A stretch of DNA of 62,855 nt, filler included, from Nemertoderma westbladi (taxonomy: Eukaryota; Animalia; Xenacoelomorpha), in the NCBI GenBank assembly GCA_032718475.1. It is 4 parts of 4 records of this genome, joined end to end, with 100 filler letters (N's around TTAATTAATTAA, not from the genome) between each part and the next. Parts side by side here need not be neighbours in the genome. Positions count along the whole stretch, not along the records: positions 18,739 to 32,434 come from JAUCBJ010006681.1; 3 more parts are not named here. One strand, 5' to 3'. Positions 4,297-58,159 of the stretch are shown piece by piece. Within the stretch, counting starts at the first letter, position 1; every line of letters starts with the position of its first letter. The notes under the pieces are model-generated. The model saw nothing but the letters and a program-made list of their open reading frames with translations, had not been told where the DNA came from and ran no database searches. A program made the translations under genes and the position numbers.

Positions 4297-4820
4297 ATGC
4301 CACCCACCACTCTAAATCCGGCCCTGATAATTACCCGAAATAGTGTTTTGGGGCGAGTGACAAGTAAGCGATCTTATCATACTGGTTCCTCTGTTTCAAA
4401 CTGTTGTTCTTCAGTCGGTCGGTCTGTGTCTGGTCTGTCAGATTACCCCAAAACCTCTGCGCTCTGGTCCGGTCAGCCGGTGGACGGTAGGCTTCGAGCT
4501 ACCATAGTGCTGTAGTGTTACCCATACGTTATGCCACAACACTTCAGCACTTACTTACTTCAACTGTTCAAAGGACCAAATGGTCAAATGAACGTGTTGT
4601 ATTGTTGATATTGAGAACGTTTACTTTATCTGTTTATGCTTTATTGCTTTACTTTGCTATTACCTAGGCAACCACTGTTGTTGAATTCAGTTGTTGAATT
4701 GGGTACCGTACTCAGAGAGTCATCTCTATCATATACCAGTACAGCAGTATACTGGTATACGGTAGAGTAGACCTACCCTTACTGCCTTACAGCCCTACCT
4801 GTACCAATTCCAATCCTATC

Positions 4821-7409
4821 ATGGATTTTCATCGATTGAAATACGAATGTCACCAGGACAAACTACCTAAATTACCTATACCCAAACTGACACAAACAGT
4901 TACTGGTTATCTGCGAGCTATCAAACCGATAACCGATAAAAAACAATGGGAGGAATTCTCCATCTTAGCTAGAAACTTTGCCAGGAGCCCCGATTCAGTG
5001 AAATTACAGAATCATCTGGAACTAATAAAAGGTTTACGTGACAGCTGGTTGGAAGACTACTGGTTGAGGGCCGCCTACCTTGAACCCCGGGTCCCAAAAC
5101 CGATATATGTGAGTCCCGCTTCTACGTTGGTTCGATTCCCGTTCCGTGATCTAGAGGGACAAATACAGGCGGCGGCGCGTGCGATAGTGGGCGTACAGAA
5201 CTACTACACTTCCGTACTGCAGTACTCGCTCGAGAACGAGCACAAACAAGGTGTTCCTCAGAGCATGGAACAGTTGTATAAACTTATTGGTAGTTCCTGT
5301 GTTCCGGGGGTTGGTTGTGATTTCTTACGAACTATAGACGATAGCCAACCCAAACCGAGGCATATCATAGTAGCTTATAAGAACCAGTTCTACTCAATAA
5401 ATCTATTTAATGAGAAGTTCGAACCTTTCTCGATAGACCAAATGTATTACCTTCTAAAGAAATTAACTAGCCATCCTATAGAACGTCCTGGAGAGGAGGT
5501 GGGAGTTCTTTCTAGTTTAGATCGAGACGATTGGGCCGGTATTTATAATAAACTTAAAGAGAACCCGACTAATTATTATTCTCTCGATAAAATTATGGGT
5601 TGCTTAGCTGTTGTTTGTTTGGATAACCCGCTACCCGGATGGGATACCGAGGGAATCGAGGAGTTACAAAGGCAGAGTTTCTTTAACTGTTTGTTCGGGA
5701 TTTCTGCCGAGGTGAACAGTTGTAACCGATGGTACGATGTTGGGATACAGATCGTTATAACCAGGTAGGTACCGGTACCGGCTGACCGGTTAGTAATGGA
5801 ACTAATGGAAGTATTGTTATTTAACGCTGGATTGTGGCAATTAAATTTTTTTGGTTTCCTAAATTTTCAATTTTCCTGAATTGAATTAATCTAACAAGTT
5901 ATTTTTTGCCTCTCATTTTGAGATAATTATAAAATATCGCTTTAATACCGCTTGCAGATTAGTAATGAGAACATCGCGACGTCACTTTTAAATTGATTAA
6001 ATAAAATGGGGCAAAAGTTTTCACCGTTAAAAACATAGAAGGCAGTTTGTACGTCTTTTAGGCAACTTATTTATATATCGGGTTTTGGCTGAGTTACCTT
6101 TCTATCTCATTACAGTTCGATTCTCTATGACCGGATAGCTGATATTGCGAATGGCATTAGGAACAATGCGACCCATTTTTTATTTTTGCTTACTAACTTT
6201 CTTTCGACACCAAGCCCCAGAGGTGTTTCCTTTACAGTTTCAAATTGGTTTCATCAAGGTAGATTAGAGATACATTGTGGAGAACTTTTGTACAGACTTA
6301 TTTGGACAGAGATTGAATGCAGTCCTGTTCTGCGCAAAATGATAGTAATTAATAGTCCTTCCTAGATAGGATATCATCTATCTGGAACTTCAACTTGCAC
6401 GGTTCGCTTCGTGTCTTATCTATATTTCATTACATTCTTATATTGCTAATAAGCAAGCACTCGCTTTCTACTACTAGAAGCTTTGTCTTACAGGGATGGG
6501 TGTCTGGGCCAGGTTCAGGAACACTCAGCTGCTGATGGGACAGCCTTCAGTCAGTTCTTTGCCTCTCTCAGAGACATCGGGATTTCGTACATGACGCACA
6601 ACTTCCGGGAGGATGGGGTCGACTGTGGTGATAACGATTCTGAGCATTTGGAATTCATAGTTGATGAACACGTGAAAGGAGAGATAGTTTGTGCGAAAAC
6701 GGAGATCCAACGGGCCGGTGATAACGTGGCGTTCACAACGTTTACTTTCCGGGATTATGGGAAGGAGTTGATTAAATCGTGGAATCTCGGCCCCGATTCC
6801 TGGTTGCAGGTCGCCTTTCAGCTCGCTTTCTACCGGATACACGGTGGGTTCCCGGCGACCTACGAGAGCTGCTCTACCCGTGGGTTCCTCCATGGACGCA
6901 CGGAGAATCTACGCACTTTGTCGGAGGAGTCAGCGGCGTTCGTTAGATCCGCAGTGGATGTGACGGAGGAGGGAGCGGGGTCGGAGGAGCGGCATAGACT
7001 GCGGGAGCTGCTGGTGAGAGCCTCCGCAAGGTACAGGGAGTGCCAAATCGCAGCCATTTCGGGCTTGGGCTTTGACCGGCATCTCCTGGGGTTGAACTCG
7101 GCCTCTAGAGATCTCGGTATCGATATTCCAATGTTCCGCGATCCGGTATTCCTGGACTCCATGCGGTTCCGATTGTCCACCAGTAAGGTGGACACCGGGG
7201 GCTTGGGATGGATTGTTGGATTCGGTCCGGTCTGCCCAGACGGCTACGGGGTCTGTTACGAGATTTATCCTGAGTTTCTTGTCGTTTCCGTCACTTCTTA
7301 CAAGGACTGCGGCATCACAGACGCATATCGTTATGCTGCAACACTGCAGCAATCCCTTCGCCATATGAAGCACATAGTTCTGACAACTAATTTAGCGCAC
7401 AAACTTTAG
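4821..7409 (+). CDS. Carnitine O-acyltransferase (CRAT-like), exons 4821-5764 and 6494-7409, 619 aa, PTS1-like C-terminus HKL
   Basis: Family motifs LPKLPIPKL, WLEDYW, NRWYD, catalytic EHSAADG, YESCSTRGFLHGRTE, DRHLLGL, LSTS, GFGPVCPDGYGVCY. The GT-AG phase-2 intron 5765-6493 joins the two ORFs in frame (AG+G=Arg). Confidence 0.95.
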
Positions 7410-10446: not shown

Positions 10447-12589
10447 GGGTAGGTGTAAAACGCTGATCCGGATTTAGGATCCGGATACGGATCAGGACCC
10501 GGATTTGCGAGTGTAAAAGGTGGATTCGGATTTACATACAATCCGTAACTGAGTGTAATATGCGGATTCTGAAATACGCAATCCGTATTGAAGTGTAAAA
10601 CGTGGATTCATATATTTTGTGAATCCGGGACGGAGTGTAAAACACGGATTTACGTTAATTACCAAGTTTTAATGGATCCGGGAAGGGGTGAATAACTCGG
10701 ATTCAATTTATTTACCAAGTTTTAATGGATCCGGGAAGGGGTGTAAAACGCGGATTCATATATTTTGTGAATCCGGGATGGAGTGTAAAACACGGATTTA
10801 CGTTAATTACCAAGTTTTAATGGATCCGGGAAGGGGTGTAAAACTCGGGTTCAATTTATTTACCAAGTTTTAATGGATCCGGGAAGGGGTGTAAAACCCA
10901 GATTCATGTTAATTACCAACTGTTACTGGATCCGGGAAGGGGTGTAAAACGCGGATTAAAGTTAATTACCAAGTTTTATTGGATCCGGGAATGGGTGTAA
11001 AACGCGGATTCAAGTTAATTACCAAGTTTTATTGGATCCGGGAAGGGGTGTAAAACACGGATTTACGTTAATTACCAAGTTTTAATGGATCCGGGAAGGG
11101 GTGTAAAACGCGGATCCACGTTAATTACCAGCTGTTACTGGATCCGGGAAGGGGTGTAAAACGCGGATTCCAGTTAATTACCAAGTTTTATTGGATCCGG
11201 AAGGGGTGTAAACACACGGATTTACGTTAAATACCAAGTTTTAATGGACCCGGGAAGGGGTGTAAAAGGCGGATCCATGTTTATTACCAGATGTTACTGG
11301 ATCCGGGAAGGGGTGTAAAACGCGGATTCAAGTTAATTACAAAGTTTTATTGGATCCGGGAATGGGTGTAAAACGCGGATTCATGTTAATTACCAAGTTT
11401 TATTGGATCCGGGAATGGGTGTAAAACGCGGATTCAAGTTAATTACCAAGTTTTATTGGATCCGGGAAGGTGTGTAAATCGCAGATTCAGGTTAATTATT
11501 ACAAAGTGCTACTGGATCCGGGAATGGGTGTAAAATGCGGATTCAATTCTTGGTAATTAACTTGAATCCGCGTTTTACACCTCTTCCCGGATCCAGTAAC
11601 ACTTTGTGATTAACCTGAATCCGTATTTTACACCCCTTCCCGGATCCAATATAACTTGGTAATTAACTTGAATCCGCGTTTTACACCCCTTCCCGGATCC
11701 AGTAACACTTGGTGATTAACCTGAATCCGCGAGTTTACACCCCTTCCCGGATCCAATAAAACTTGGTAATTCACTTGAATCCGCGCTTTACACCCCTTCC
11801 CGGATCCAATAAAACTTGGTAATTAACTTGAATCCGCGTTTTACACCCCTTCCCGGATCCAGTAACACTTGGTAATTAACTTGAATCGGCGTTTTACACC
11901 CCTTCCCGGATCCAATACAACTTGGTAATTAACTTTAATCCGCGTTTTACACCCCTTCCCGGATCCAATAAAACTTGGTAATTAACTTTAATCCCGTTTT
12001 ACGCCCCTTCCCGGATCCAATAAAACTTGGTGATTAACTTGAATCCGCGTTTTACACCCCTTCCCGGATCCAGTAACACTTGGTAAATAAATTGAATCCG
12101 CGTTTTACACCCCTTCCCGGATCCAATAAAACTTGGTAATTAAGTTGAATCCGCGTTTTACACCCCTTCCCGGATCCAATAAAACTTGTTAATTAACTTG
12201 AATCCGCGTTTTACACCCCTTCCCGGATCCAGTAACACTTAGTAAATAAATTGAATCCGCGTTTTACACCACTTCCCGGATCCAATAAAACTTTGTAATA
12301 AACCTGAATCCGTATTTTACACCCAATCCCGGATTCAGTAGAAATATGAATCCGCGTTTTACACTCCGTTCACGATTTAGCCTAAAACATGAATCCGCGA
12401 TTAACACTCCGTTCCGGATCTGAAAAAAAGTCAATCCGCGTTTTATACTCTGTTACGGATTCGGTAAATTTGTCAGTGCGCGGATCCGCAGATTACACCC
12501 TAAAAATGTAAATTCAGTCGACTTCCATAGGGGCAATGTTAAATGATAGAATCCGGATCCTGATCCGGATCCGCGTTTTACTCTGACCC
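10447..12589. mobile_element. Foldback / Mutator-like non-autonomous element built from two inverted arrays of a 53-bp unit
   Basis: TIRs GGGTAGGTGTAAAACGCTGATCCGGAT / ATCCGGATCCGCGTTTTACTCTGACCC and 9-bp TSD ACATATATG (10438-10446, 12590-12598). The unit ggatccgggaaggggtgtaaaacgcggattcaagttaattaccaagttttatt switches orientation near 11548. Confidence 0.9.
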
Positions 12590-15410: not shown

Positions 15411-16491
15411 GTTTTATTATGTTATTTTATTGTTTTGTTAAGAAGTTATCTCCTCTTATGACTTAAGTGAAAATATGTGTTGATCACAGGATAACAAAGA
15501 TAATTTTGATGTCAAGTTGGGGTCGAACTGCAACTGGTGAGCTCTTCTTTGGAAGCATAAAGGTCTAAACATTCCGATATCAGTTCTCGCAAAAGGTGGA
15601 CATGAACCTGAAATGAAAATGCCACTACAAAAGTAAGTTCTGGTTTATCTTAATAACTTATGTATTACTAATGTAAAAGTCAATGATGCCCCGGTCAATT
15701 TGTAACTCTGATTCACCTATTCTATACAAGTTAATATTATTATATAATGGGTTGAATTTTAGAGAATTATATAGGGATGAGTTTTGATTGCGTCAAAAGT
15801 GCCATCGCCTCCACCACCCTTATCTGCAATAACAATAATAATAAGTACCTTAACTAATTAACTAATTATGACCTTATTTTCTGGGCCCTCTGACATATTA
15901 GGAGTAGTAACTATACTTGTTTTCTATAGTTTGCAATCAGTCTCACGCTTTCACGTTTATGAGTCGACAGTGACATGCTGCGTTTGGTAGTAGTAAGAGG
16001 CCACAGTTTGCCCCATCCCCTTTCTATTGGTAGATGCCATCCCTAGTCGCCTAGTCAGTCACATTGGGCTTACGAACTCCATTCCAAGGAACCTGCAGGC
16101 TCTCCATGATTGCAGGAATCGTGATGAGGAATCGTATTTGAGCTGCCGCTATTGGTGGAATACAATCTTCCTTGCCCACATGCGCAGGTCGCTGCGGAGC
16201 AGGAATACATGACAAAGTTGGAATTGAAACGACGCATAGTTTATACAACACTGATCGACTGGTGAAGTTAGTTTGTTTGTAGACACACAAACACATACAG
16301 ATATTATATTCTCCAAAATATAATCTACTATTATATTTATTTATGTTTATGTGCCACCGAAAATGTGATTTATTTTTCTGTTAGATTTAGATGAGGTGAC
16401 ACATTTTCTGGTTTCTAGTATTTCTGGTTGGATTTTTCGATATTTTTCATATTTTCTACTGTTGTTTTATATCGCTTCACAGAAATCCACT

Positions 16492-17589
16492 ATGAATAAT
16501 AACGCGCCGTACTTCAATCAAGAATTCATACTGTTGGCGAATAACAATGAGAACAGGATAATCCAGGAACCTCCGCTCATAAGACTGCAAGCCCAGTCCT
16601 GGTCCATGGAGACCCTGCCAAACTGGAAGTCTTTCCTCAAGAGTCCGAAGCCTTGGGAACTGGGTCGTATGAGGCGTGTCTCTACGTCTCCTACTCTGAC
16701 GCCTACCTGTGGGTTCTGCGTGCAGCACACCCGTGCAGCCCGACTCACTCGCACAGGCGTGCTCTGGATCCTTCTATCAGCACTGACTACTTCCCTATCT
16801 ACTCTCGCATTCCTCTCTCCTTGCTGGATCCTGGAGTCTGGAACCAATGATGAGACAGGGTTTGGAGTTTTCTCATTTTGTACTAAAGGAGAAGATAATA
16901 TTGTTAACTGCAGGTAAATTAGACCTTTTGACTTTGTTTAATGTTGTTTAGCCGGTACAGCATTCTTAAAAATGCAGCTGCAATGCAGCATGCCGATCCT
17001 ATAACATCATTAACAATAACCTCATTAAACAACATTACTCTACAGTAATGTTGTTTAATGATGTTATTGTTTAACTAGGTAAGCGTTAAATCTCGTTGAA
17101 TTAAACTCCAAGAGTTATGATATTTTATAGGCCTATTAACTTACTACCTTAGATAATTTTTATAAGTGCCGTCCATACTAAGTAAGTATACAATTACGAA
17201 ACAACATGTTATTTATTACATTGCTTAAAAGATTTATTATTGATAGTAATAATGTATTTTTCGAGGTGTTTGTTATGATACATTTATTATAGGAAGGGAA
17301 AAGATTTAAGGCTGACTACTGGCGGTCTGGGCGAGTAACTTTACCTCTGGGGGATTACGTAACTATGTTGTTACTGTAAGCTATGTTCGCCTATGTTGCA
17401 GGGTGTATGGCGGGCGATATAACCTACTAGACATACCCACGGTTATATGGCAGGTTGTTTCCATTCTCTACGGCGGCGGCTGTTGTTTACTCATAGTCTG
17501 CACGATGGTTGCCATTAGCAACCTCTTCATTAAAGGCATTGTTGGGTCGAATTCTTCTATTCTCATTGGCTACATTCAGTGCGCTGCCC
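16492..17589 (+). CDS. LHFPL-family (lipoma HMGIC fusion partner-like) tetraspan membrane protein, partial: exons 16492-16913 and 17402-17589
   Basis: GVLWILLS...FLSPCW...FGVFSFC...C-R-VYGG...IPTVIWQ...LYGGGCCLL fits the LHFPL pattern. The phase-2 GT-AG intron 16914-17401 keeps frame and a donor GTAAG follows at 17590. Later exons were not found before the contig ends. Confidence 0.85.
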
Positions 17590-18638: not shown

Positions 18639-18738
18639 NNNNNNNNNNNNNNNNNNNNNNNNNNNNNNNNNNNNNNNNNNNNTTAATTAATTAANNNNNN
18701 NNNNNNNNNNNNNNNNNNNNNNNNNNNNNNNNNNNNNN
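18639..18738. other. Artificial contig linker (N44-TTAATTAATTAA-N44)
   Basis: Identical 100-bp spacer with six-frame stops occurs three times. Confidence 0.98.
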
Positions 18739-19966
18739 GCCAATGTCCCAAGAGCAGCTCGCGCGAGTTGGACTATAGAAAATTTGCTGCTCGATATATG
18801 CGGCGTAATGGTATGTATATGGGCTTCTTAACTACTGGTCATCCTATCGATTTACACAATACGGACTATGTCGACTATATATCCTGCCCAGCGGAGTCGG
18901 AACCATAAACGGAAATTCGAATGCAAAAATTCTATTCGAAATCGACTCGAAAGAAAAGACACTTAAGAAACAAATGGACGTGGTAACTCCAACGTATATT
19001 TGGAATTCTTGATAGAAGCATTGTAACAACAAATAAATATCACCCGCGTTTACCCTACCAGACGTGCGTCTTTGGTATTATTACGATAAATGCCCTAGAC
19101 CCAACTAATAAACGGAAAGACATAAACATCCACGTAAACCGAAACTTGTTGACGTATCACCTATGCTCACTCGGCTCGAACGATCCTGGAGTAAACCTAC
19201 GATCAGAGTCCCGGAATACTCGGTCAAACCTCCTCATTCCTTAGTTGGACCTCAGACCTGCGATCCTGGTGGTGTCGCGGATCCTCGCGGACTGTATTCA
19301 CTGTTCAAAGATCTAGTGCTACCCTAACAATTAATTGGTAACACTCCGACAGTGATTTCTAGCTAGCCGCCCATCTTACCTAGCCGGATTGTGACGCGGA
19401 CACCTAATATCACTATCCAACCGTATGGTCGTCCACGTTTAACGCGATACAACCCCTCATCAAGGTAAAGGAGAGCGTTGTACGAAACGAGTTAAACGCT
19501 ATTTTATAAAGATCAAAAAGGAAACCTGCGTTTGTTCAGATAAACGTAAGTTATAACAGTAAGTCCAATCGATAAACGAATTGGCCTTATCTCAATTCGA
19601 TTGGGAAATCCAGAATCTCTAAGAAGTTATCGAACTTGGACGATCCTATTCTCTGCGAGAGTTTTTGGATGAACGTATCCAGCTACGAGCGGAGGAAAAT
19701 CAGCTCGAGGAGAAGCATATCGAAACGGCAGATACCTCGACCACAATCCTACACCTTCTGATGCAATCATATTGCACCCTTCACCCAGGAGTTATGGCCC
19801 TCCTAGTAAAGTGGCTCCCCCCAAAGAGAAAAAGACTCTTGCTAGCCTCAAAAAACTGCGTAAACGCCGTCTGCGTAAGAAAGACTAACTGTTTAGAGTA
19901 TCTTTATGTTTTAGAAACTGTGATTTTTATATTTTATAGACTGAAAATCCCATTTTCTGGGAGCGG
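18739..19966 (+). pseudogene. Degenerate 3' internal region of a Gypsy element (integrase C-terminus, basic tail, 3' UTR, PPT)
   Basis: Manual translation gives RMQKFYSKS...NKYHPRLPY...INIHVNR (GPY/F-module-like) with stops and frameshifts. One frame ends KKLRKRRLRKKD* at ~19888. PPT-like gggagcgg lies directly before TGT at 19967. Confidence 0.6.
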
Positions 19967-21174
19967 TGTAAAAGCTTTTGCTGAATTGTCCGGTTATTTT
20001 TCCCGTAAAATACTCTGTAGTTGGTTTACCAGGCATAAAAAGGCCGTGTCCTTGCTGTACTGGTGTTTTAGCGGACATAAAAGCTATTTCTTCTGTATTT
20101 GTACTTTAGAGGACATAATCTGTAATTCCGTGACGTAAAAGCTCGATACTCTTGAAAACAGTGTCGCTACCATGACGACGGCTAGCAGCTGATATTGCCA
20201 CGTCGACGTTTCTTTGTCTCTTTGTTCTCTCGTTGTTCAGGTTGACCAATGAGAGCGTTTGTTGTCTCTGTGTTAGAGGTGTATACAGAAACTCAGTAGT
20301 TCAGTGTTATGTTTTGCCCAGAGCCTAAGAACCGGCTTTTGGCACCTCCGTGTTTTCAGTTTTTAGTCCTACACTAGTAGGCTTAATTATAAGGACATAT
20401 ATCCGTTATCTGATGTCTGATGACTGATGTCTGCATACTGCATACTGCATACTGCAGTACTGCATACACTGCATACTGTGTAACACTGTGCATACTTTTA
20501 TATTGTTATACTGCTATTTACTGTCAGTTCTTCATAATATGGTTGATGAATTATTATATTTTGAATAACGACAAATAACCCCAAAAACCCAATATTCTTG
20601 ATATACCGAAGGTAAGAGAGAAAGGTTACAGATAAATGATTGCGACCTATGTTGAGTGGTTTGAAGTGAATCTAATGTTATTTGATAGACCCTACATGAT
20701 TCGGTCCGTGTTCCTTTTATATGTGACTAAAATCAGTGAAGATCGGCAGATCAGTGTGCAGTATTGTGCAGCATTGTGTATGAGTGAGACTGATAACGAA
20801 GCATTTCCTAAAGAATGCGCCATATATGTAAATTGTAACTAAGCCATATCGTTGTGAGTAGTTTAAGTCATAACTCTGTTTGTATAGATAGAGCGCCACG
20901 TCCTAAAGGAACTGTTAATATTTCCCGAAGGTGAATAATATTGTCAGAGATTATATAATACTGCCAGTCGAATAATACATTAGGCTTACATAGCAATAAA
21001 ATTAAGCCGTCGAACCCAATCTCCCGGGTATATCCAGCGGGTGAATGATCGCGCACAGATTGGTTTCGACTAGTGTAGTGAATTAAATATTTGTCATAGA
21101 CTAAAGGTGATTTATTATCTAGAAGACATCCTAATTTGGCGGGTTAAACTGCCAAAGGTCTGAAAGCGCGAACA
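19967..21174 (+). repeat. 3' LTR copy A (~1.2 kb)
   Basis: Starts TGTAAAAGCTTT and ends AAAGCGCGAACA (imperfect TIR TGTnnnnGCTTT). Homology with copy B stops exactly at ACA. CCAAT at 20246. Confidence 0.8.
20500..21174 (+). ncRNA. Putative large structured cis-RNA in LTR copy A (family unassigned)
   Basis: Several helices with compensatory and G-U-consistent changes versus copy B (see findings). The 5' boundary is approximate. Confidence 0.65.
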
Positions 21175-21220: not shown

Positions 21221-22834
21221 CTATTAATACTAGGTCGAGCGAACTCGGACAGTGGAAATGAGATCCTTCCGGGCTTCCCGATTCTCCAAATACTAATAGG
21301 TCGAGTGAGCTCGGACAGTGGAAATGAGATCCTTCCAGGCTTCCCGATTCTCCATAGTTGTCGCAATTTCGTTTCTCCCAAGTTCAGTATCCCTTTCAAG
21401 TTGGTCTATATATGTTATGGCCGGTCGTCCACGACTACGCTTTCTATGAGTTGGTTGCCAGAGAAGTAGATCTGGTATGACCTCGTCTTTACTTCGCCAG
21501 CAGTGCCCACTGAATCTTAATCTGCGTTCACGGAGGGTGTTTGATACAGGTGGTATAGTACCATAGAGCTCGGTGTTTGTCATGTGTTGTCTCCAGCTGA
21601 TGTTTAGGGCTGCCCTTAGTAGTCTTGTGTAGCAACCATCAATTCGTTGTTCAAGTGATTTAGTCAGTGTCCAGGTCTCACCCCCGTATAAAAATACACT
21701 TTCCACTGTGGCTCGAAAGAACTTAGTCTTCAGGTGCCTGGAGAGATCTGATTTCCAGATGGTATCCATATTTGATAGAGCTACCCAAGCCTTTGCTTTC
21801 TTAATTTCTATGTCTTTTCTGCTACTCTCTCTATCCATAATAATATATTTATTTATCAGCGCCTATTCAAATTAATGAAAAAGTGCTCTAGGCGCACTAG
21901 CTAAAAAGTAAAAGCAGTAGTAAGTAATTAAAAGATCAGTTATATACACGGCTAAAATAATGAGTCTTGAGACAACGCTTAAATGAGTCCAGAGACCCAC
22001 AAGATTTAACCGAATCTGGGAGTGCGTTCCATATCATCGGAGCTGCAACCGAAAATGATCGACGTCCATAATGTTCAAGTCGGTACCTAGGTTGTACCAG
22101 GTTGTTTTGGTAAGCAGAACGAAGATCTCGTGCCGGTTGGTAAACTGAAACCAACTGTGATAGGTAGTTAGGAGCTGTCCCGTTCAGGCATTCATGATCC
22201 AAGGTACTGGAAATCGTCAACCTTCCTTGTTGATTATTATCGATTGTTGTCAAGTTTCCATCAACATTAAAAGTCATGAATTGAATTCGGTCTTGGTAGT
22301 ATTAATATGCAATCCAACCTCCTTAGCAGCCCTCTTGGTGGCAGCCCAAGCGAGTTGCTGAAGTGATCGTTCCATTAACCAACACGTTCTTCATGAATAC
22401 CAGCAAATAGGCGCCCCAAAGCTCAAGTAATTCCGCCAGATGCTTCATTATTGATTGTTGCTGGATGTGAGCAGTTGTTTTTTACTTTGTAGGCTATCCT
22501 TAAGATCTTCTCTATTAACATAGTAACCTAGTAACCAAGTAACCTAAGAGTCTTGCCATGGCACATAATGTTTTCATTTTGGTTTCTAGTAAATTGAATC
22601 GGTAGAATGGTCTTCATCCATTGAACCTCTCTGGAACTTCAAAGCGGTTTTGAACTTCTACTGTGTAAGCATCCTTTACTGCATTGTCAGTTATGAGTTT
22701 CTCCCAGTCATAGTTATTTCGCTTGCTTGTCCTGGGTTTACTGGCTCTTTAACTAAGTCTGTTCTTTGCAGTCACAATTCTGTGGTCCGATCTAATCAGG
22801 TTGAACGAGCTGCTGTATGCCTCGCAGTTAATCA
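21221..22834 (-). mobile_element. Internally deleted RTE-clade LINE with duplicated 3' end
   Basis: ORF 21293-21838 (KTKFFRATVESVFLYGGETWTL...RLRFSGHCWR...RGRP). Its APE-region pieces match 37400-37800. TSD TCTAGGGGAA (21211-21220) / TCTAAGGGAA (22835-22844). Confidence 0.85.
21840..22193 (-). mobile_element. L2/CR1-group LINE 3' end nested in the RTE
   Basis: APNYLSQL...P.RDLRS...GRRSFSVAAPMIWNALP...FKRCLKTHYF with an aataaat/att tail. It splits the RTE motif YLGS|WIESS. Confidence 0.85.
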
Positions 22835-25213: not shown

Positions 25214-28200
25214 GTAGTATAAGTAATAGGCAGTCGCGTGTATTTGGTGCGAAATGTTGGAGTAGTATAAGTAATAGGTAGTCGCGTGTATTTGGTGCGA
25301 AATGTTGGAGTAGTATAAGTAATAGGCAGTCGCGTGTATTGGGTGCGAAATGTTGGAGTAGTATAAGTAATAGGTAGTCGCGTGTATTTGGTGCGAAATG
25401 TTGGAGTAGTATAAGTAATAGGCAGTCGCGTGTATTGGGTGCGAAATGTTGGAGTAGTATAAGTAATAGGTAGTCGCGTGTATTGGGTGCGAAATGTTGG
25501 AGTAGTATAAGTAATAGGCAGTCGCGTGTATTGGGTGCGAAATGTTGGAGTAGTATAAGTAATAGGTAGTCGCGTGTATTTGGTGCGAAATGTTGGAGTA
25601 GTATAAGTAATAGGCAGTCGGGTGTATTTGGTGCGAAATGTTGGAGTAGTATAAGTAATAGGCAGTCGCGTGTATTGGGTGCGAAATGTTGGAGTAGTAT
25701 AAGTAATAGGCAGTCGCGTGTATTGGGTGCGAAATGTTGGAGTAGTATAAGTAATAGGTAGTCGCGTGTATTTGGTGCGAAATGTTGGAGTAGTATAAGT
25801 AATAGGTAGTCGCGTCTATTTGGTGCGAAATGTTGGAGTAGTATAAGTAATAGGTAGTCGCGTGTATTTGGTGCGAAATGTTGGAGTAGTATAAGTAATA
25901 GGCAGTCGCGTGTATTGGGTGCGAAATGTTGGAGTAGTATAAGTAATAGGCAGTCGCGTGTATTTGGTGCGAAATGTTGGAGTAGTATAAGTAATAGGTA
26001 GTCGCGTGTATTGGGTGCGAAATGTTGGAGTAGTATAAGTAATAGGCAGTCGCGTGTATTTGGTGCGAAATGTTGGAGTAGTATAAGTAATAGGCAGTCG
26101 CGTGTATTTGGTGCGAAATGTTGGAGTAGTATAAGTAATAGGCAGTCGCGTGTATTTGGTGCGAAATGTTGGAGTAGTATAAGTAATAGGCAGTCGCGTG
26201 TATTTGGTGCGAAATGTTGGAGTAGTATAAGTAATAGGCAGTCGCGTGTATTGGGTGCGAAATGTTGGAGTAGTATAAGTAATAGGCAGTCGCGTGTATT
26301 TGGTGCGAAATGTTGGAGTAGTATAAGTAATAGGCAGTCGCGTGTATTTGGTGCGAAATGTTGGAGTAGTATAAGTAATAGGCAGTCGCGTGTATTGGGT
26401 GCGAAATGTTGGAGTAGTATAAGTAATAGGTAGTCGCGTGTATTGGTGCGAAATGTTGGAGTAGTATAAGTAATAGGCAGTCGCGTGTATTTGGTGCGAA
26501 ATGTTGGAGTAGTATAAGTAATAGGCAGTCGCGTGTATTTGGTGCGAAATGTTGGAGTAGTATAAGTAATAGGCAGTCGCGTGTATTTGGTGCGAAATGT
26601 TGGAGTAGTATAAGTAATAGGCAGTCGCGTGTATTTGGTGCGAAATGTTGGAGTAGTATAAGTAATAGGCAGTCGCGTGTATTTGGTGCGAAATGTTGGA
26701 GTAGTATAAGTAATAGGCAGTCGCGTGTATTGGGTGCGAAATGTTGGAGTAGTATAAGTAATAGGCAGTCGCGTGTATTGGGTGCGAAATGTTGGAGTAG
26801 TATAAGTAATAGGCAGTCGCGTGTATTTGGTGCGAAATGTTGGAGTAGTATAAGTAATAGGCAGTCGCGTGTATTTGGTGCGAAATGTTGGAGTAGTATA
26901 AGTAATAGGCAGTCGCGTGTATTGGGTGCGAAATGTTGGAGTAGTATAAGTAATAGGCAGTCGCGTGTATTTGGTGCGAAATGTTGGAGTAGTATAAGTA
27001 ATAGGCAGTCGCGTGTATTTGGTGCGAAATGTTGGAGTAGTATAAGTAATAGGCAGTCGCGTGTATTGGGTGCGAAATGTTGGAGTAGTATAAGTAATAG
27101 GCAGTCGCGTGTATTGGGTGCGAAATGTTGGAGTAGTATAAGTAATAGGCAGTCGCGTGTATTTGGTGCGAAATGTTGGAGTAGTATAAGTAATAGGCAG
27201 TCGCGTGTATTTGGTGCGAAATGTTGGAGTAGTATAAGTAATAGGCAGTCGCGTGTATTGGGTGCGAAATGTTGGAGTAGTATAAGTAATAGGTAGTCGC
27301 GTGTATTTGGTGCGAAATGTTGGAGTAGTATAAGTAATAGGCAGTCGCGTGTATTTGGTGCGAAATGTTGGAGTAGTATAAGTAATAGGTAGTCGCGTGT
27401 ATTGGGTGCGAAATGTTGGAGTAGTATAAGTAATAGGCAGTCGCGTGTATTGGGTGCGAAATGTTGGAGTAGTATAAGTAATAGGCAGTCGCGTGTATTT
27501 GGTGCGAAATGTTGGAGTAGTATAAGTAATAGGCAGTCGCGTGTATTTGGTGCGAAATGTTGGAGTAGTATAAGTAATAGGCAGTCGCGTGTATTGGGTG
27601 CGAAATGTTGGAGTAGTATAAGTAATAGGCAGTCGCGTGTATTTGGTGCGAAATGTTGGAGTAGTATAAGTAATAGGTAGTCGCGTGTATTTGGTGCGAA
27701 ATGTTGGAGTAGTATAAGTAATAGGTAGTCGCGTGTATTTGGTGCGAAATGTTGGAGTAGTATAAGTAATAGGCAGTCGCGTGTATTGGGTGCGAAATGT
27801 TGGAGTAGTATAAGTAATAGGTAGTCGCGTGTATTTGGTGCGAAATGTTGGAGTAGTATAAGTAATAGGCAGTCGCGTGTATTTGGTGCGAAATGTTGGA
27901 GTAGTATAAGTAATAGGTAGTCGCGTGTATTTGGTGCGAAATGTTGGAGTAGTATAAGTAATAGGCAGTCGCGTGTATTTGGTGCGAAATGTTGGAGTAG
28001 TATAAGTAATAGGTAGTCGCGTGTATTTGGTGCGAAATGTTGGAGTAGTATAAGTAATAGGTAGTCGCGTGTATTTGGTGCGAAATGTTGGAGTAGTATA
28101 AGTAATAGGCAGTCGCGTGTATTTGGTGCGAAATGTTGGAGTAGTATAAGTAATAGGCAGTCGCGTGTATTGGGTGCGAAATGTTGGAGTAGTATAAGTA

Positions 28201-31089
28201 ATAGGTAGTCGCGTGTATTTGGTGCGAAATGTTGGAGTAGTATAAGTAATAGGTAGTCGCGTGTATTTGGTGCGAAATGTTGGAGTAGTATAAGTAATAG
28301 GCAGTCGCGTGTATTTGGTGCGAAATGTTGGAGTAGTATAAGTAATAGGCAGTCGCGTGTATTTGGTGCGAAATGTTGGAGTAGTATAAGTAATAGGCAG
28401 TCGCGTGTATTTGGTGCGAAATGTTGGAGTAGTATAAGTAATAGGCAGTCGCGTGTATTTGGTGCGAAATGTTGGAGTAGTATAAGTAATAGGCAGTCGC
28501 GTGTATTTGGTGCGAAATGTTGGAGTAGTATAAGTAATAGGCAGTCGCGTGTATTTGGTGCGAAATGTTGGAGTAGTATAAGTAATAGGCAGTCGCGTGT
28601 ATTGGGTGCGAAATGTTGGAGTAGTATAAGTAATAGGCAGTCGCGTGTATTTGGTGCGAAATGTTGGAGTAGTATAAGTAATAGGCAGTCGCGTGTATTT
28701 GGTGCGAAATGTTGGAGTAGTATAAGTAATAGGCAGTCGCGTGTATTTGGTGCGAAATGTTGGAGTAGTATAAGTAATAGGTAGTCGCGTGTATTTGGTG
28801 CGAAATGTTGGAGTAGTATAAGTAATAGGTAGTCGCGTGTATTTGGTGCGAAATGTTGGAGTAGTATAAGTAATAGGCAGTCGCGTGTATTTGGTGCGAA
28901 ATGTTGGAGTAGTATAAGTAATAGGCAGTCGCGTGTATTTGGTGCGAAATGTTGGAGTAGTATAAGTAATAGGCAGTCGCGTGTATTTGGTGCGAAATGT
29001 TGGAGTAGTATAAGTAATAGGCAGTCGCGTGTATTTGGTGCGAAATGTTGGAGTAGTATAAGTAATAGGTAGTCGCGTGTATTTGGTGCGAAATGTTGGA
29101 GTAGTATAAGTAATAGGCAGTCGCGTGTATTTGGTGCGAAATGTTGGAGTAGTATAAGTAATAGGCAGTCGCGTGTATTTGGTGCGAAATGTTGGAGTAG
29201 TATAAGTAATAGGCAGTCGCGTGTATTTGGTGCGAAATGTTGGAGTAGTATAAGTAATAGGTAGTCGCGTGTATTTGGTGCGAAATGTTGGAGTAGTATA
29301 AGTAATAGGTAGTCGCGTGTATTTGGTGCGAAATGTTGGAGTAGTATAAGTAATAGGCAGTCGCGTGTATTTGGTGCGAAATGTTGGAGTAGTATAAGTA
29401 ATAGGCAGTCGCGTGTATTTGGTGCGAAATGTTGGAGTAGTATAAGTAATAGGCAGTCGCGTGTATTTGGTGCGAAATGTTGGAGTAGTATAAGTAATAG
29501 GCAGTCGCGTGTATTTGGTGCGAAATGTTGGAGTAGTATAAGTAATAGGCAGTCGCGTGTATTTGGTGCGAAATGTTGGAGTAGTATAAGTAATAGGCAG
29601 TCGCGTGTATTTGGTGCGAAATGTTGGAGTAGTATAAGTAATAGGCAGTCGCGTGTATTTGGTGCGAAATGTTGGAGTAGTATAAGTAATAGGCAGTCGC
29701 GTGTATTGGGTGCGAAATGTTGGAGTAGTATAAGTAATAGGTAGTCGCGTGTATTTGGTGCGAAATGTTGGAGTAGTATAAGTAATAGGCAGTCGCGTGT
29801 ATTTGGTGCGAAATGTTGGAGTAGTATAAGTAATAGGCAGTCGCGTGTATTTGGTGCGAAATGTTGGAGTAGTATAAGTAATAGGTAGTCGCGTGTATTT
29901 GGTGCGAAATGTTGGAGTAGTATAAGTAATAGGCAGTCGCGTGTATTTGGTGCGAAATGTTGGAGTAGTATAAGTAATAGGCAGTCGCGTGTATTTGGTG
30001 CGAAATGTTGGAGTAGTATAAGTAATAGGTAGTCGCGTGTATTTGGTGCGAAATGTTGGAGTAGTATAAGTAATAGGCAGTCGCGTGTATTTGGTGCGAA
30101 ATGTTGGAGTAGTATAAGTAATAGGCAGTCGCGTGTATTTGGTGCGAAATGTTGGAGTAGTATAAGTAATAGGCAGTCGCGTGTATTTGGTGCGAAATGT
30201 TGGAGTAGTATAAGTAATAGGTAGTCGCGTGTATTTGGTGCGAAATGTTGGAGTAGTATAAGTAATAGGCAGTCGCGTGTATTTGGTGCGAAATGTTGGA
30301 GTAGTATAAGTAATAGGCAGTCGCGTGTATTTGGTGCGAAATGTTGGAGTAGTATAAGTAATAGGCAGTCGCGTGTATTTGGTGCGAAATGTTGGAGTAG
30401 TATAAGTAATAGGCAGTCGCGTGTATTTGGTGCGAAATGTTGGAGTAGTATAAGTAATAGGCAGTCGCGTGTATTGGGTGCGAAATGTTGGAGTAGTATA
30501 AGTAATAGGTAGTCGCGTGTATTTGGTGCGAAATGTTGGAGTAGTATAAGTAATAGGCAGTCGCGTGTATTTGGTGCGAAATGTTGGAGTAGTATAAGTA
30601 ATAGGCAGTCGCGTGTATTTGGTGCGAAATGTTGGAGTAGTATAAGTAATAGGTAGTCGCGTGTATTTGGTGCGAAATGTTGGAGTAGTATAAGTAATAG
30701 GCAGTCGCGTGTATTTGGTGCGAAATGTTGGAGTAGTATAAGTAATAGGCAGTCGCGTGTATTTGGTGCGAAATGTTGGAGTAGTATAAGTAATAGGTAG
30801 TCGCGTGTATTTGGTGCGAAATGTTGGAGTAGTATAAGTAATAGGCAGTCGCGTGTATTTGGTGCGAAATGTTGGAGTAGTATAAGTAATAGGTAGTCGC
30901 GTGTATTGGGTGCGAAATGTTGGAGTAGTATAAGTAATAGGTAGTCGCGTGTATTTGGTGCGAAATGTTGGAGTAGTATAAGTAATAGGCAGTCGCGTGT
31001 ATTGGGTGCGAAATGTTGGAGTAGTATAAGTAATAGGCAGTCGCGTGTATTTGGTGCGAAATGTTGGAGTAGTATAAGTAATAGGTAGT
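25214..31089. repeat. 48-bp satellite array, ~122 copies (gtagtataagtaataggYagtcgcgtgtattKggtgcgaaatgttgga)
   Basis: Near-perfect tandem units with two recurrent SNPs, rare private SNPs (25621, 25816) and one 1-nt deletion near 26445. Confidence 0.98.
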
Positions 31090-31785
31090 TGTTCGCGCTT
31101 TTGAAGACCTTTAGCAGTTTAACCTGCCAAAATTTATATGTCTTTTAGTTAATTAAAACACCTTTAGCATACGACAATAATTTATGCTAATACGCAAAAC
31201 ATTAGCCGAAGGCAGCCCATGCGCGATCATTCACCCGATGGATCTACACCCGGGAGGCTGAATTCGGATGCTTAAATTGTATTATTACAGTGTAAGGTTG
31301 CAGTGTATACCTAATGTATTATTCGATAGATCGTTAATAATTAATCTCTGACAGATATTATTGGCTTTCGGGAAATATTAACAGTTCCTTTAGGACGTGG
31401 CGCTTTATCTATTTAAACAGAACTAAGACTTATACTAAAACGCAACGATACTGCTTATGATTAAAGTATAAAGCGTATTCTTTAGGAAATACTTTGTTAC
31501 CAATCACGATCATCCACACCATTCTGCCGACAGTCAGTACATTTGATCACACATAAAGAGAGCAGTAATTGACTCACGTAGGGTCTGCTAAATAACATTG
31601 GATTCAATACACACCACATTAATATAAATCGCAATTGTTATGTATAGCCGGTCTCTCTAACCTGTAGTGTTATCAAGAAAATTGGGAATTGGGTGATTTA
31701 TCCGTATTATCCAAATAGCAATATTTCCATCAACAAATAGGTACAATTAATAACTGACGGTAAAATAACAGTACAAACAATATGA
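31090..31785 (-). ncRNA. Putative large structured cis-RNA in LTR copy B (family unassigned)
   Basis: Invariant blocks shared with copy A (agcgccacgtcctaaaggaactgttaatatttcccgaa; tcgaataatacattagg; cgggtgaatgatcgcgca) plus covarying helices. Confidence 0.65.
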
Positions 31786-32316
31786 TTAATGCAATTAAAT
31801 TAAGTAAGTAAAGTATTATACGAGATGAGTTAGATGAGTTTCATTAGTTCGTTAAGTTAGGTAACAGTTTATACTTTCGATAATTTAAGCAGTTTTACTA
31901 GAGTTCTTCCCAAAAATGCCGGTGTTTCTGGCTTAGACAGCAATAACAACAACAGAATCATATAAAATCATATGACTACTAACACTATACGAGTATCTCA
32001 GAACTCTTATTCCACGAAGCCCCGTTCAACACAGAGGATGAGCAGTGAGATAGGATTTTCAGTTCAGTAGCTCTTGATAGGTCGAAAATCAACGCCTACT
32101 CAAATTCTATTGGCCGATACAGACAGCAGTGCTGAAGCAACCTCCCTAAGCTGGCTGGCCGATTAAACTGAGCCCAGATCCTTCCGTACAGCACATCAGC
32201 CAATAAGCTGGTAGCTTACACTATTCTAGCTAGGTATCCCTTTCGAGAGTATTCAGCGACAGGGGGTAACTGGTTGGCAAGGCAAACGAATCAGTTATCC
32301 CACAAAAGCTTTTACA
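31090..32316 (-). repeat. 3' LTR copy B (~1.23 kb) of the same Gypsy family
   Basis: Minus strand reads TGTAAAAGCTTTTG...CAAAAGCGCGAACA. It is preceded by the same gggagcgg PPT and by 32317-32434, which is highly similar to 19850-19966. Confidence 0.8.
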
Positions 32317-32434
32317 CCGCTCCCAGAAAATGGGGTTTAAGTCTATAAAATATACAAAATCACAGTTTCTAAAATATAAAAATACTCTAAACAGTTAGTC
32401 TTTCTTGCGCGGACGGCGTTTACGCAGTTTTTTA

Positions 32435-32534
32435 NNNNNNNNNNNNNNNNNNNNNNNNNNNNNNNNNNNNNNNNNNNNTTAATTAATTAANNNNNNNNNN
32501 NNNNNNNNNNNNNNNNNNNNNNNNNNNNNNNNNN
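32435..32534. other. Artificial contig linker
   Basis: N44-TTAATTAATTAA-N44. Confidence 0.98.
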
Positions 32535-36903: not shown

Positions 36904-36974
36904 TTTTGAAAAACGGCCATAGTATAATTATATCAGTTCGCTGATGGCTCGCCATACGTGTCTCGCCCCACAGC

Positions 36975-38465
36975 TCAGCAGTAAGAAACTCCGCCAATGC
37001 ATCAATTGGTGGAGTAGGAATTCTGCTAAGCCCATTTGCACTTAAGACCCTAAACAACATCGAATCTATAAATTCCAGGGTTATGATCAGCTGCTACAGT
37101 CCAACCAATGCCTCAGAGCCAGAACAAGCAGTCATGCTTTATGAAGAACTGACTGGACTTATTAAGGACATTCCGAAACACAATGTTAAAGTCATTGCTG
37201 GTGACCTGAAAGCACAAATTGGGTAACACCAGTTCTAACAGAATTGGGTACTTACTTTTAGACCTAATGGAAGAATGTGAATTGATACCAAAAAACAACA
37301 TATTCGAAAAGAGTAAGGGGAAGCTATGGACCTTTCAATACCCTAATGGAACCAAAGCACAACTGGATTACATCCTTATAAACAAAAAGTGGAGAAACAG
37401 CATGATCAACTGCGAGGCATACAACTCGTTCAACCTAATTGGTTCGGACCACAGAATTGTGACTGCAGAGATCAGACTCAGTTTGAGAGCCATCAAACCC
37501 AGGACAAGCAAGCAAATCAACTATGACTGGGAGAAACTCAGAACTGACAATGCTGTAAAGGATGCTTATACAGTAGAAGTTCAAAACCACTTTGAAGCAC
37601 TTCAGTCAATGGATGAAGACCAATCCACCGATTCAATATACCAGAATATAATAACAGCCCACAAGGAATCAGCTAAGAGGCATATCCCCCAGACACCCAA
37701 ACGAAAACAGTAAGTGCCATGGCAAAACTCTGAGGTTACTTGTAAGAGAGAAGATCGTAAGATAGCCTACAAAGTTAAAACCGAACAACCAACAACCGAA
37801 AAAAACATTAACAAGGTTGAGAAAGCTAAGGACGATCTTAAATTAACCTACAACATAAAGTTACCTACAACGAAAAGTACATACAGGATAAAATTGAAGC
37901 AATTACAACTGCTCACATACAGCAACAATCAAGACTTACCTGGCAAACTGTAAATTAGGTATCTGGTCGGAAATGTTGTGCAAAGGGGCGCCTTATAGCC
38001 GATAGTCCTGAAGAACGTGTTGGGAAGTGGAAAAATCACTTCAGCAACTTGCTTGGGCAGCCACCGAACATCGAGGTCAGCCCTACAAGGAAAATACTGT
38101 ATATGACAAGACACTACCTATAGAAACAGGGGACTTCGCACCTGCCGAACTCCAAAGAAGCATTAAAAGCATGTCCAATAATAAAGCGAGTGGATTACAT
38201 GAAATCCCAGCGGAGGTATGAAAAACCGGAGTGTTAAACAGACCATTACTGAATGTTTGCAACCGGATGTTAAAAGGGGAAAAGCCACCACCAATTTGGA
38301 CTAAAGGTCAACTAAAGCCTCTCCCCAAGAAAGGAGACCTCGGCATACCAACAAACTATCGTGGGATCGGTCTGCTTGTGGTAGCTGCCAAAATATACAA
38401 TAAAATGATTCTATATAGGATTAGGCCTCACATAGAGAAACTACTGCGTAAGAGCCAAAACGGAT
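36975..38465 (+). pseudogene. RTE-clade LINE fragment (APE endonuclease and RT N-terminus), frameshifted
   Basis: GVGILLS, CYSPT, IAGDL, WTFQYPNGTKAQLDYIL, SDHRIV, KASGLHEIPAE, PLPKKGDL...NYRGI motifs across ORFs 37219-38467. Confidence 0.9.
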
Positions 38466-45150: not shown

Positions 45151-45765
45151 CTACCGGAAGCGTTTCAGTGACAGAGTGTTCCTGCGTTTCCAGGCAGCCC
45201 TGCGTGAACCTCCTATCGTCTGGTTGAACTTGTGGCCCTTCCCAATTCCTCGGGATCGCTTCCCAGCCGAGGTTAGACCCCGCAGCTCCCTGTGTCTGTG
45301 CACCGGTTTACACAACCACTGGGTGTCGGGATTGCGTCTAACGGCCTGGTGGAATGGATCCACTAGGATCACTTCGTAGTACTTGTAGGTTGAGTCCTGG
45401 TTAACCCAGTAACTATTTAACACTCTCAACCCCCCACACTTTCTGCCCACTCTCTCCTCGGCTATAGACTGATTCGTTCTCCGAAACTTCAGCTGATTAA
45501 CCCCTTCGCACACGGGTTTACCGTAGGTCGCACCTTTCGGCACAGGCTTCTTCCTACCTCCTCTTCGCACACGAACTCGGTAAATGACGTAGCCTTGCTT
45601 CGCTTTGTACCCAAGCCGTCTCGCTTTCTCCGGACGTGTGGGTTTAGTCACGCGATGGACCCGCGAGAGCTGTCTGTAGTGCCAGCAACGAACACGGAGA
45701 AGAAAGTGCATCACATCGCTCTGTTTCTTCCGCCACAACTCCTGCATATATTTGTAGGCCCCCAT
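45151..45765 (-). CDS. RPL15: 60S ribosomal protein L15 (eL15), 204 aa, intronless CDS
   Basis: [19 protein letters not shown]...[11 protein letters not shown]...[25 protein letters not shown]...[10 protein letters not shown]; full length and intact. Confidence 0.98.
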
Positions 45766-46224
45766 ACTTAGGCAGATACCGGTACTGTTATACGATAATT
45801 TAACAGATTAATTTAGTCAGTTAGTGCTGTCTGGCTGTAGTGCAGTGTGCAGTAGTGGCGCTATCCTGCTATCGCAGTACAGCAGCAGTCAGGTAGTACA
45901 GTAGTATCTGAGTACTGGAGTATCCGCTATCCTTTTGTCTGTCTGTCCTTATGCCAGTATGCTGTTCTGCTGTTATGAGGTTACCTTTTATTTTATTTAA
46001 TATTACAGTATTATGTGTTATGCCTAGGCCTACCGGACAGCCGGACCGCACCCAATTCAGTAATCCGATGTAATCCAGTAATCACAGAATTATTTCAGTA
46101 CCTATTTCCTTACAGACTTAGGCCTACCTGACTGCCTGAGTACGTACCGGTTGCCAGTAGCCATAGAGCAGTAGTGGGCTCATGCCTTGCAGGTTGCAGC
46201 CTAGTTGAGTCAGCCAGTAGTTAA

Positions 46225-50349: not shown

Positions 50350-50449
50350 NNNNNNNNNNNNNNNNNNNNNNNNNNNNNNNNNNNNNNNNNNNNTTAATTA
50401 ATTAANNNNNNNNNNNNNNNNNNNNNNNNNNNNNNNNNNNNNNNNNNNN
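50350..50449. other. Artificial contig linker
   Basis: N44-TTAATTAATTAA-N44. Confidence 0.98.
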
Positions 50450-56859: not shown

Positions 56860-57612
56860 GCATGGACTCCCATAGAGGAGTACTGGAACTACTGCTGCTC
56901 TAAATAATCAGACCTTAAGTTTCTGATTAATCCGCAGCAAGGCAGATTTCATTGTTCTGCTAGCACGCAGACTAAGTCTTACCTTGGCCACAATAAGGTG
57001 GTGATCACTGGAGAAGGGTCGAAGTGTAAATGCATTACAGTCTTGTATTGAGCTCCTGTATTTCCTACGAAACAGGATATGGTCTCACACTTGGCTGTTG
57101 CAACAGAGAGGACCAGTCATGCCGCGGCAAGACAGATTTCGTTGTTCTGCTAGCATGCAGACTAAGTCTTACCTTGGCCAAAATAAGGCGGTGATCACTG
57201 GAGAAGGGTCGTAGTGTAAATGCATTACAGTCTTGTATAGAGCTCCTGTATTTCCTACGAAACAGGATATGGTCTATCTGGGACTTGTGACCACTGGGTC
57301 CACTATGAGTCCATAGCTTTCCAGTTCGCTTCTTGAACTGGGTTCCAGCCGAAAACAATCCATTTCCAGAGATAAAATCCTGAAGATGGACAGAATTTCG
57401 GTTAACACTATTGCTATAGACCCAGGGCGATGTAGGTGATTGATGCAGACTTGCATTAAAGTCTCCCATGAATGTTAAGAATGCATGCTGATCCATTCCA
57501 TCAGTAGCTGCTTGTAGATTCTGGTAGAAATTTTCCACCTCCTCTACAGGGGCAACACTAGTTGGAGAGTAGCACACAATCAGAACCACCTTAGGAAACT
57601 TCTTAGCCAGTA
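56860..57612 (-). pseudogene. RTE-like APE endonuclease fragment with internal duplication
   Basis: VCYSPT, MGDFNA, WTH...SQIDHIL, SDHRLI motifs; 56940-57085 duplicates 57132-57273. Confidence 0.8.
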
Positions 57613-57614
57613 CC

Positions 57615-57814
57615 AATACCCCCAGGGTTTCAAAAGCAACTGGTTGCACAATATAACTATAAGATAGCCCCTTGTACTTATCGAGCTTTCTAGCTTCTGC
57701 CAGGTCTGCAACTGAAGCTCCATCTAGTCCAGCAGAATATGAATAAGAGGTAGCCAATCTGTGTGTACACGTGAAGTCCCACACCCGGGGCTTCCCTCTA
57801 TTCCAATGCAGCAA
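57615..57814 (-). pseudogene. CRE-like non-LTR restriction-like endonuclease C-terminal fragment
   Basis: W.RGK..VWDFTC...LA.SY...AEARK..KY..L...PVAFETLG. Confidence 0.7.
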
Positions 57815-58159
57815 TGTAGAATTCCTGCCCCATTTTGGCTGTCCTGTCTGGGTTTTAACTATGATCTCTATGGGGAGTAATTGTCAATAAATAATAATAA
57901 TAATATGGGACAACGAAACCGAAATATTGTAACATGAACAAATTGTCACGGCTTCCACCGTAAACTATGACTTAACCACCACCCATTCCATGAACTATCG
58001 CCCAACTGTATCTGTAAATTCTGTGGAAACAGGTGTATCGACTGCTACCATGCACTGTCCTGTTCTGACACTCCTACACTATACATAATACACTACATTC
58101 ATGTTCTATACAATCATATTCTACAATCAAGTCCAATCAAGTCTACGTCGGGTATTTAC

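Follow-up and report, generated by a model that had tools for sequence, protein, structure and literature searches.

Why should two LTRs be unalignable in their promoter-side halves and keep several hundred nucleotides of non-coding sequence at their distal ends? The question was raised by an earlier note on the window, by which we mean the whole stretch of 62,855 nucleotides from Nemertoderma westbladi that was analysed here. The note proposed that a large, covarying, pseudoknotted RNA is encoded in the distal half of a Gypsy LTR, with one copy at 20500-21174 on the plus strand (copy A) and another at 31090-31785 on the minus strand (copy B). The coordinates of both copies were confirmed.

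The LTRs and the element that carries them

The LTR of copy A spans 19967-21174 (+, 1208 nt) and that of copy B spans 31090-32316 (-, 1227 nt), and both run from TGT to ACA. At their distal ends, contig depth dropped steeply past 21175 (A) and contigs parted ways at 31089-31090 (B). Adjoining LTR A, a PPT-like purine tract (19959-19966, +) lies behind a T tract, and the T tract and purine tract upstream of the LTR are identical in the two copies. Both copies have a TG...CA terminal repeat preceded by a PPT, as LTR retrotransposons do. Of the internal region, copy A retains the 3' end (18739-19888, +), which on translation gives broken reading frames with a Pro-rich basic tail and which had contig coverage in all four of four runs. 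Copy B retains the final ~120 nt together with the purine tract (32317-32434, -), 94% identical to A by BLASTN. The upstream parts of both elements are missing at gaps, and the 5' part of the internal region of copy A is lost. Since both elements are cut upstream by gaps, both LTRs are 3' LTRs, and the window has no 5' LTR or primer site. The gaps at 18639-18738, 32435-32534, and 50350-50449 each consist of 44 N, a 12-nt palindromic spacer, and 44 N, and their flanks may not be contiguous.

The element is numerous. In run X1, 19,580 contigs matched a 2.5-kb stretch of A, and 1,871 contigs matched 279 nt of B, these being counts of contigs and not copy numbers. Single contigs on A and on B run beyond the LTR end into sequence with a common 8-nt word; indirectly, the same repeat appears to stand also at the 5' end of the element, followed by a common internal sequence. 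Judged from sequence, A and B are 3' LTRs of an abundant and diverse LTR retroelement of an invertebrate.

The Gypsy label of the earlier note could not be upheld. Searches of the remaining 1.1 kb, where frames are broken, and of flanking sequence gave no reverse transcriptase (RT) or integrase domain and no RNase H gene, and the three frames before the PPT, broken as they are and with no integrase recognised either, gave no match to a chromodomain. The 1.1-kb internal remnant had no homologue in Pfam, in representative or longer proteins, or in the PDB, and its predicted protein model was of low confidence (pLDDT 44). Its protein end presumably resembles an integrase GPY/F tail. The label, which draws on the LTR ends and this resemblance, is unproven.

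Identity between A and B varies sharply along the LTR. By BLASTN, ~130 nt around the LTR start were 94% identical, the next ~530 nt (the U3-like half) had no match, and the last ~680 nt were 70.5% identical over 721 columns. The earlier note had described the U3-like halves as barely alignable and the distal part as conserved, which agrees with these values. The coding end before the LTR (19853-19980 and 32430-32303) is 94% identical as against 70% for the RNA domain, and U3 is unalignable. This difference between pre-LTR and LTR identity suggests recombination between subfamilies or a far quicker turnover of the LTR. A promoter-side hairpin common to A 20305-20342 and B 31948-31910 did not stand out significantly from shuffled sequence (138 of 500).

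Several other features were seen in the window. A 48-bp unit is repeated 122 times at 98% identity in an array (25214-31089) that starts at the base next to the end of LTR B. None of the three minus-strand frames of this array contains a stop codon (1764-2009 aa), which is probably an artefact of the unit. At 10623-12334, a large imperfect palindrome is formed by two arrays of a 53-bp unit in head-to-head orientation. An inverted pair of 469 nt at 570-1038 and 60040-60508 (99% identity) is likely to be two recent copies of another repeat. Two long open frames at 4698-5768 and 6453-7409 (+) each match one half of a choline/carnitine acyltransferase (Pfam PF00755), a frame at 16369-16917 (+) ends in a match to LHFPL (PF10242), and an intron-less ribosomal protein L15 frame (RPL15; 45151-45807, -) is at most 81% identical to its 86 matches, which fits a bilaterian-type invertebrate host with no close relative among the proteins searched. 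Fragments at 21293-21862 (-), 36945-37713 (+), and 57065-57883 (-) resemble what we take to be LINE endonuclease/RT tails; two of these LINE-like fragments were scanned and gave only a weak DUF6451 match.

A predicted structured RNA in the distal LTR

The alignment, open reading frame check, and fold tests mark 20500-21174 (+) of copy A as a conserved non-coding structured RNA, and the alignment, contigs, and fold model do so for 31090-31785 (-) of copy B. A conserved open reading frame, which the earlier note had named as a competing explanation of the conservation, was looked for, and no frame on either strand was open in both copies; the longest stop-free stretch had 91 aa in copy A and 46 aa in copy B. 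A search against Rfam 15, also proposed in the note, gave no match over the whole window at the gathering score, and relaxed searches on either LTR gave only weak spurious matches (best E 0.18, antisense). Searches with exact patterns gave 0, 0, and 3 matches in viral contigs, the three by chance, with none found by protein; 120 loci in metagenomes, none with BLASTN similarity; and one chance match in prokaryote genomes. The distal LTR contains an invariant block of 38 nt between A and B. The CYAAAG motif occurs four times in each copy, as the note had reported, in the middle as well as the 3' domain and never in the proximal LTR halves (1 of 5000 shuffles for each copy). Twelve degenerate 6-mers had four occurrences in both copies, the only ones not AT-rich being the overlapping CYAAAG/CTAAAR. 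The third CYAAAG copy is variable at 21106 in contigs.

All six helices named in the note are present in both copies, with covariation of unequal quality. Helix 1 does show the three double changes and the change from U-A to U-G that had been claimed for it, but one of its pairs is broken in both copies and one more in B. Helices 4, 5, and 6 show only one-sided (G-U) changes. The candidate pseudoknot, 21049-21054 with 21166-21171, is a 6-bp complementarity found in both copies; since it is invariant between A and B, the window gives no covariation for it. It belongs to a 3' domain (20977-21174, +) together with helix 6, helix 1, an inner hairpin, a UGUC/GACA helix, and a terminal hairpin. In the hand-built model, a middle domain (20701-20855, +) consists of helices 20701-06/20788-93, 20794-97/20851-54, 20801-06/20813-18, and 20824-28/20845-49. 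RNAalifold gave a possible long-range helix of 20687-20691 with 21157-21161 (+), which is invariant and so offers no covariation. A small hairpin at 20743-20750 / 31530-31523 has an invariant GGCA loop in both copies and a lower stem that differs.

The domains were scored separately by an alignment-fold shuffle test that preserves the pattern of conservation. For the 3' domain, the sense strand gave a z of -5.05 with 0 of 100 shuffles as good, and the antisense strand a z of -1.58 with 9 of 100. The preference for the sense strand of the element, which the note had read from the G-U pattern, was thus confirmed for the 3' domain. The middle domain had a z of 0.24, with 6 double changes against 3.3 expected and as many in 7 of 60 shuffles, and the 5' part of the distal LTR had a z of 0.05. 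Folds of the single sequences were unremarkable (z of -2.13 for A and +0.40 for B), and local folding energies in 120-nt windows gave no consistent signal, the best z being -2.7 on the sense strand of A and -2.5 on the antisense strand of B. A fold across 600-650 nt, as the note had claimed, was not borne out by these tests. Of the 91 pairs in the hand-built model, 7 show double changes, 10 are changed on one side, and 2 do not form in one copy or in both; four of the double changes fall among the 21 pairs of the middle domain. As the model was fitted to the same two rows, it is descriptive only, and for the same reason the two-row shuffle control (4 of 500) was not counted as independent proof.

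Variants independent of the two copies came from contigs, those of run X6, possibly an RNA run, serving as sequence evidence only; no RNA run was listed as containing the stretch. The contigs show at least 22 substitutions in the 3' domain of B, which are not independent since many come from two contigs; 3 of the 22 lie on the 93 of 251 positions that are paired (P 0.012), and all three keep or restore the pair. At 31212, pair 7 of helix 1, broken in the window copy of B, is restored in most of the B-type contig depth; it reads U-A there and C-G in A, which makes a fourth double change. At 31257, contigs show a U-G intermediate between the U-A of A and the C-G of B. One contig with a shortened inner hairpin retains its 3-bp base, and in another most of the sequence inside the UGUC/GACA helix is replaced and the helix and CUAAAG are retained. 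The first base of the pseudoknot loop strand (31217) changes from U to A in one X5 contig, and its partner (31099) from A to U in two X1 contigs; these variants are complementary but unlinked, and come from different runs. In the middle domain, where 40 of 280 variants are listed, the majority variants at 20703 and 20707 improve and lengthen helix 20701/20793, and that at 20707 gives U-A against A-U in B.

The selection on a large RNA fold that the note had proposed therefore has to be divided. The sequence comparisons support selection on a sense-strand RNA fold in the 3' ~200 nt, hint at it in the middle domain, and give no support for it in the 5' third of the distal LTR. Could only the last ~200 nt be functional, as an ordinary structure on the U5/PBS side, with the upstream 480 nt conserved for other reasons and their helices due to chance? 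The z values near 0 in the 5' and middle parts and the fitting of the model to two sequences favour this, as does the AU-rich sequence, which yields many chance helices (of at least six pairs, the sense strand has 95 and the antisense strand 50). The double changes speak against it, as four of them cluster in one nested middle domain, and so do the majority variants at 20703 and 20707 and the presence of CYAAAG outside the 3' domain. We regard this explanation as unlikely. It is compatible with the self-priming considered below.

Complementarity beyond the LTR end

Among the roles that the earlier note had suggested was a scaffold for priming, and this one was strongly supported. In the B lineage, the 13 nt right after the LTR end are the exact reverse complement of 31873-31861 within the LTR (13 of 13). 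The match begins at the first base after the terminal CA, and none of 2000 shuffles reached it. The post-LTR sequence of B was read from one X6 contig, and an X1 cell of 14 contigs agrees with it. We infer that 31861-31873 (-) is the self-primer of copy B and that the homologous place, 20398-20409 (+), is that of copy A. The post-LTR sequence in an A-type X6 contig differs from that of B; its best match in A, 20397-20409, reached 10 of 13, which is not significant alone (622 of 2000 shuffles), and it also fits B at 31473 with 11 of 13. A third post-LTR variant matched A or B at no more than 10 of 13. The evidence on the primer site consists of 30-letter contig ends from other insertions, including 5' LTRs. 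No TGG tRNA site was found among the loose ends listed, 24 of 696 for A (including those at 21174) and 15 of 40 for B (31086-31090). In the accessible text of PMC6317226, a screen for self-primers asks for 10 nt or more of complementarity that begins 0-5 nt past the LTR, which is what B shows.

What lies around the putative primer is also alike in the two LTRs. The predicted cut would fall at 20409/20410 in A and 31861/31860 in B. In both copies a tract of short duplications follows the putative primer end, in A as a hypervariable tract of short tandem duplications (20410-20499, +), and contig joints depart at 20408-20413 with differing inserts, at the predicted cut. At the other end, the 3' strand of the pseudoknot stops 3 nt short of where the primer site would begin in a 5' LTR. 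In both copies the last 12 nt of the LTR pair best with the pseudoknot loop (8 of 100 and 2 of 100 shuffles did equally well), and the best partners for the sequence beyond the primer site lie at non-homologous places in A and B. A 12-nt word just past the primer site (~18-30 nt beyond the LTR end) is self-complementary with two G-U pairs; it was seen in an X6 loose end at 21174, with 8 nt of it in B contigs, and, read by hand, it resembles a retroviral dimer-initiation palindrome.

Taken alone, self-priming of the element's reverse transcription is, on this sequence evidence, quite probable. Since the post-LTR bases complement a segment inside the LTR, the structured RNA sits in the loop of the self-priming duplex. 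The loop of Tf1 is far smaller, so self-priming alone leaves the 680 nt without an explanation. In the text available to us, yeast Tf1 is the only element for which experiments have shown self-priming, and its RNA structure is small (PMC4600332, PMC7175516). There the primer site is paired with the first 11 bases, and RNase H cleaves between bases 11 and 12 (PMC7175516, PMC4600332). Tf1 is also described as requiring two duplexes that flank the primer duplex and form a 'pretzel' (bioRxiv 10.1101/2022.12.06.519325, partial text). As the best partner of the last 12 nt of the LTR is the pseudoknot loop, the pseudoknot would occupy the place of the upstream pretzel duplex in both copies; a downstream partner falls at non-homologous places.

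The primer could instead be the processed 3' end of the RNA itself, with transcription starting further upstream and the 3' end forming at the matched segment of the 3' LTR; the fold would then be pure U5 and would regulate 3'-end formation or packaging. The matched segment of B opens with TATAAA, which is like a poly(A) signal, and the two LTRs have no AATAAA in common, both of which would fit. The A segment lacks a word of this kind, however, a poly(A) tail would need trimming, and no such primer is described for Tf1/sushi in the portions of the literature seen. We consider this reading quite improbable.

A catalytic role was also considered. The fold could be an undescribed large ribozyme that clamps the primer duplex by the pseudoknot and cuts the RNA to leave a 3'-OH primer, replacing RNase H. 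To our knowledge, only the chemistry of large ribozymes leaves a 3'-OH. The size, the multi-domain layout, the 38-nt invariant block, and a pseudoknot beside a substrate-like duplex would suit such an activity, and A as well as B contains, in order, words resembling the group I R and J8/7. At motif level, however, the 3' strand of a group I P7 is absent after the R-like word, as are a group II domain 5, a hammerhead core shared by the two copies, and the CR-I of RNase P. Moreover, no ribozyme or intron of Rfam matched even with E allowed up to 10, hypervariable sequence follows the cut, and Tf1 performs its primer cut by RNase H (PMC7175516, partial text). If true, this reading would mean that a retrotransposon produces its own primer through a catalytic RNA belonging to a new class of large ribozyme, but we hold it to be very unlikely.

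A proposed self-priming scaffold and the closest known systems

The explanation that we favour by a little, reasoning from the likeness to Tf1, is that of an enlarged scaffold, in which the fold would display the self-primer duplex and serve as a packaging mark on the genome. Transcription would start at or upstream of the primer segment. In the genomic RNA, a 12-13-nt segment in the middle of the 5' LTR would pair with the bases directly after the LTR, a complementarity observed with its position in the B lineage, and this pairing would close a loop of ~770 nt between the self-primer and the primer site. The loop would fold into several domains, of which the 3' one is well supported by covariation and the middle one suggested. 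The fold may fix the primer duplex at the LTR end, with the predicted pseudoknot, 3 nt before the primer site, standing where Tf1 has a PBS-adjacent duplex. If the element follows Tf1, its RT/RNase H would make the cut behind the paired segment, the 3'-OH left there would be extended, and minus-strand DNA would begin at the terminal CA of the LTR. The CYAAAG loops and invariant blocks may be contacts for Gag/RT or tertiary contacts.

The same loop is a leader with 14 AUGs in A and 12 in B between the primer end and the LTR end, numbers that disfavour plain scanning. The fold might therefore be mainly a translation device, an IRES or a ribosome shunt that brings ribosomes past the AUG-rich leader of ~770 nt to gag, with self-priming as a separate matter. 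A pseudoknot at the 3' end of the leader would fit such a device, and the 600-nt leader of CaMV, which lies before the primer site, is shunted and carries a packaging signal (PMC5902531, partial text). On the other side, neither LTR matched an IRES of Rfam, no gag start was seen, ribosomes might avoid the leader altogether on a spliced or internal transcript, and the loop motifs of the dicistrovirus IGR (type 6) IRES, a hairpin UAUUUA and CAGCC, were found in B only. The translation device is a serious rival, partly compatible with the self-priming scaffold, though as the main role we think it unlikely.

How does the proposed scaffold compare with known systems? Its closest likeness is to Tf1/sushi. 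Like Tf1/Tf2/Tj1 and Tf1/sushi, Ty3/Gypsy chromoviruses in the partial texts available, the element has no tRNA site among the contig ends listed, and, like them, it has an LTR segment complementary to the first bases past the LTR-terminal CA (13 of 13 in B; weak for A). Again as described there, a PBS-adjacent duplex with LTR sequence downstream of the primer is predicted, here the pseudoknot, and the TG...CA ends and the T tract before the PPT are also shared. Unlike Tf1/sushi, with a short U5 and, in the texts seen, hosts among fungi, vertebrates, and non-seed plants, the element has a loop of ~770 nt with a multi-domain fold and pseudoknot and an invertebrate host. RT and chromodomain gave no match here, in a comparison drawn from the broken 1.1-kb remnant alone. 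The element likely works like Tf1/sushi, the likeness being its self-priming signature. LTRs average 572 nt in Sushi and 695 nt in rGmr1 according to the accessible part of PMC3601003. Skipper lacks a complementary LTR segment according to the available text (PMC5006619), and self-priming is not mentioned in the parts seen of the Odin and errantivirus papers, that on Odin giving no primer data.

Other systems share single traits. The 600-nt pregenomic leader of the caulimoviruses CaMV and RTBV is likewise long, structured, and rich in upstream AUGs, and is placed between the 5' end of the RNA and the primer site; it combines translation and packaging roles (PMC5902531, partial text). CaMV, compared here by description, differs from the element in its Met-tRNA primer, its one long stem-loop, and its lack of LTRs and integrase. 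The self-primers predicted for plant TAR (Houba/Osr-1) Copia and Tcn1 Gypsy elements have the same sequence signature (PMC6317226), but there the hosts are plants, and a large conserved fold is not mentioned in the text available. Retrozymes and ribozyme-carrying retroelements also have structured RNA inside repeats. The retrozymes carry small hammerheads, whereas a shared hammerhead core is absent here and Rfam gave no match.

Several candidates were tried and rejected. Troyka has CG...CG termini and LTRs of 100-400 bp in the seen part of PMC12440569, as against TGT...ACA and 1208/1227 nt here. A group I intron or GIR1 was set aside on the absence of a P7 3' strand after J8/7, and a group II intron on finding no domain 5 candidate with catalytic triad and 2-nt bulge in either copy; Rfam matched neither. 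For the dicistrovirus IGR IRES, the SL-IV UAUUUA and SL-V CAGCC loops were not common to both copies, and Rfam again gave no match. The hammerhead and RNase P cores were also rejected at the level of motifs.

The self-priming mechanism is already known, and the large folded loop is the new part. No published description of such an LTR RNA was found in the literature searched, a body outside which most subscription journals and Repbase lie. The reading proposed here would give an abundant invertebrate LTR family that combines a self-priming signature with a pseudoknotted fold of several hundred nucleotides absent from Rfam. It would add to the large structured RNAs a new one whose position in a replication cycle is defined, and it would bring with it a cut site predicted to the nucleotide.
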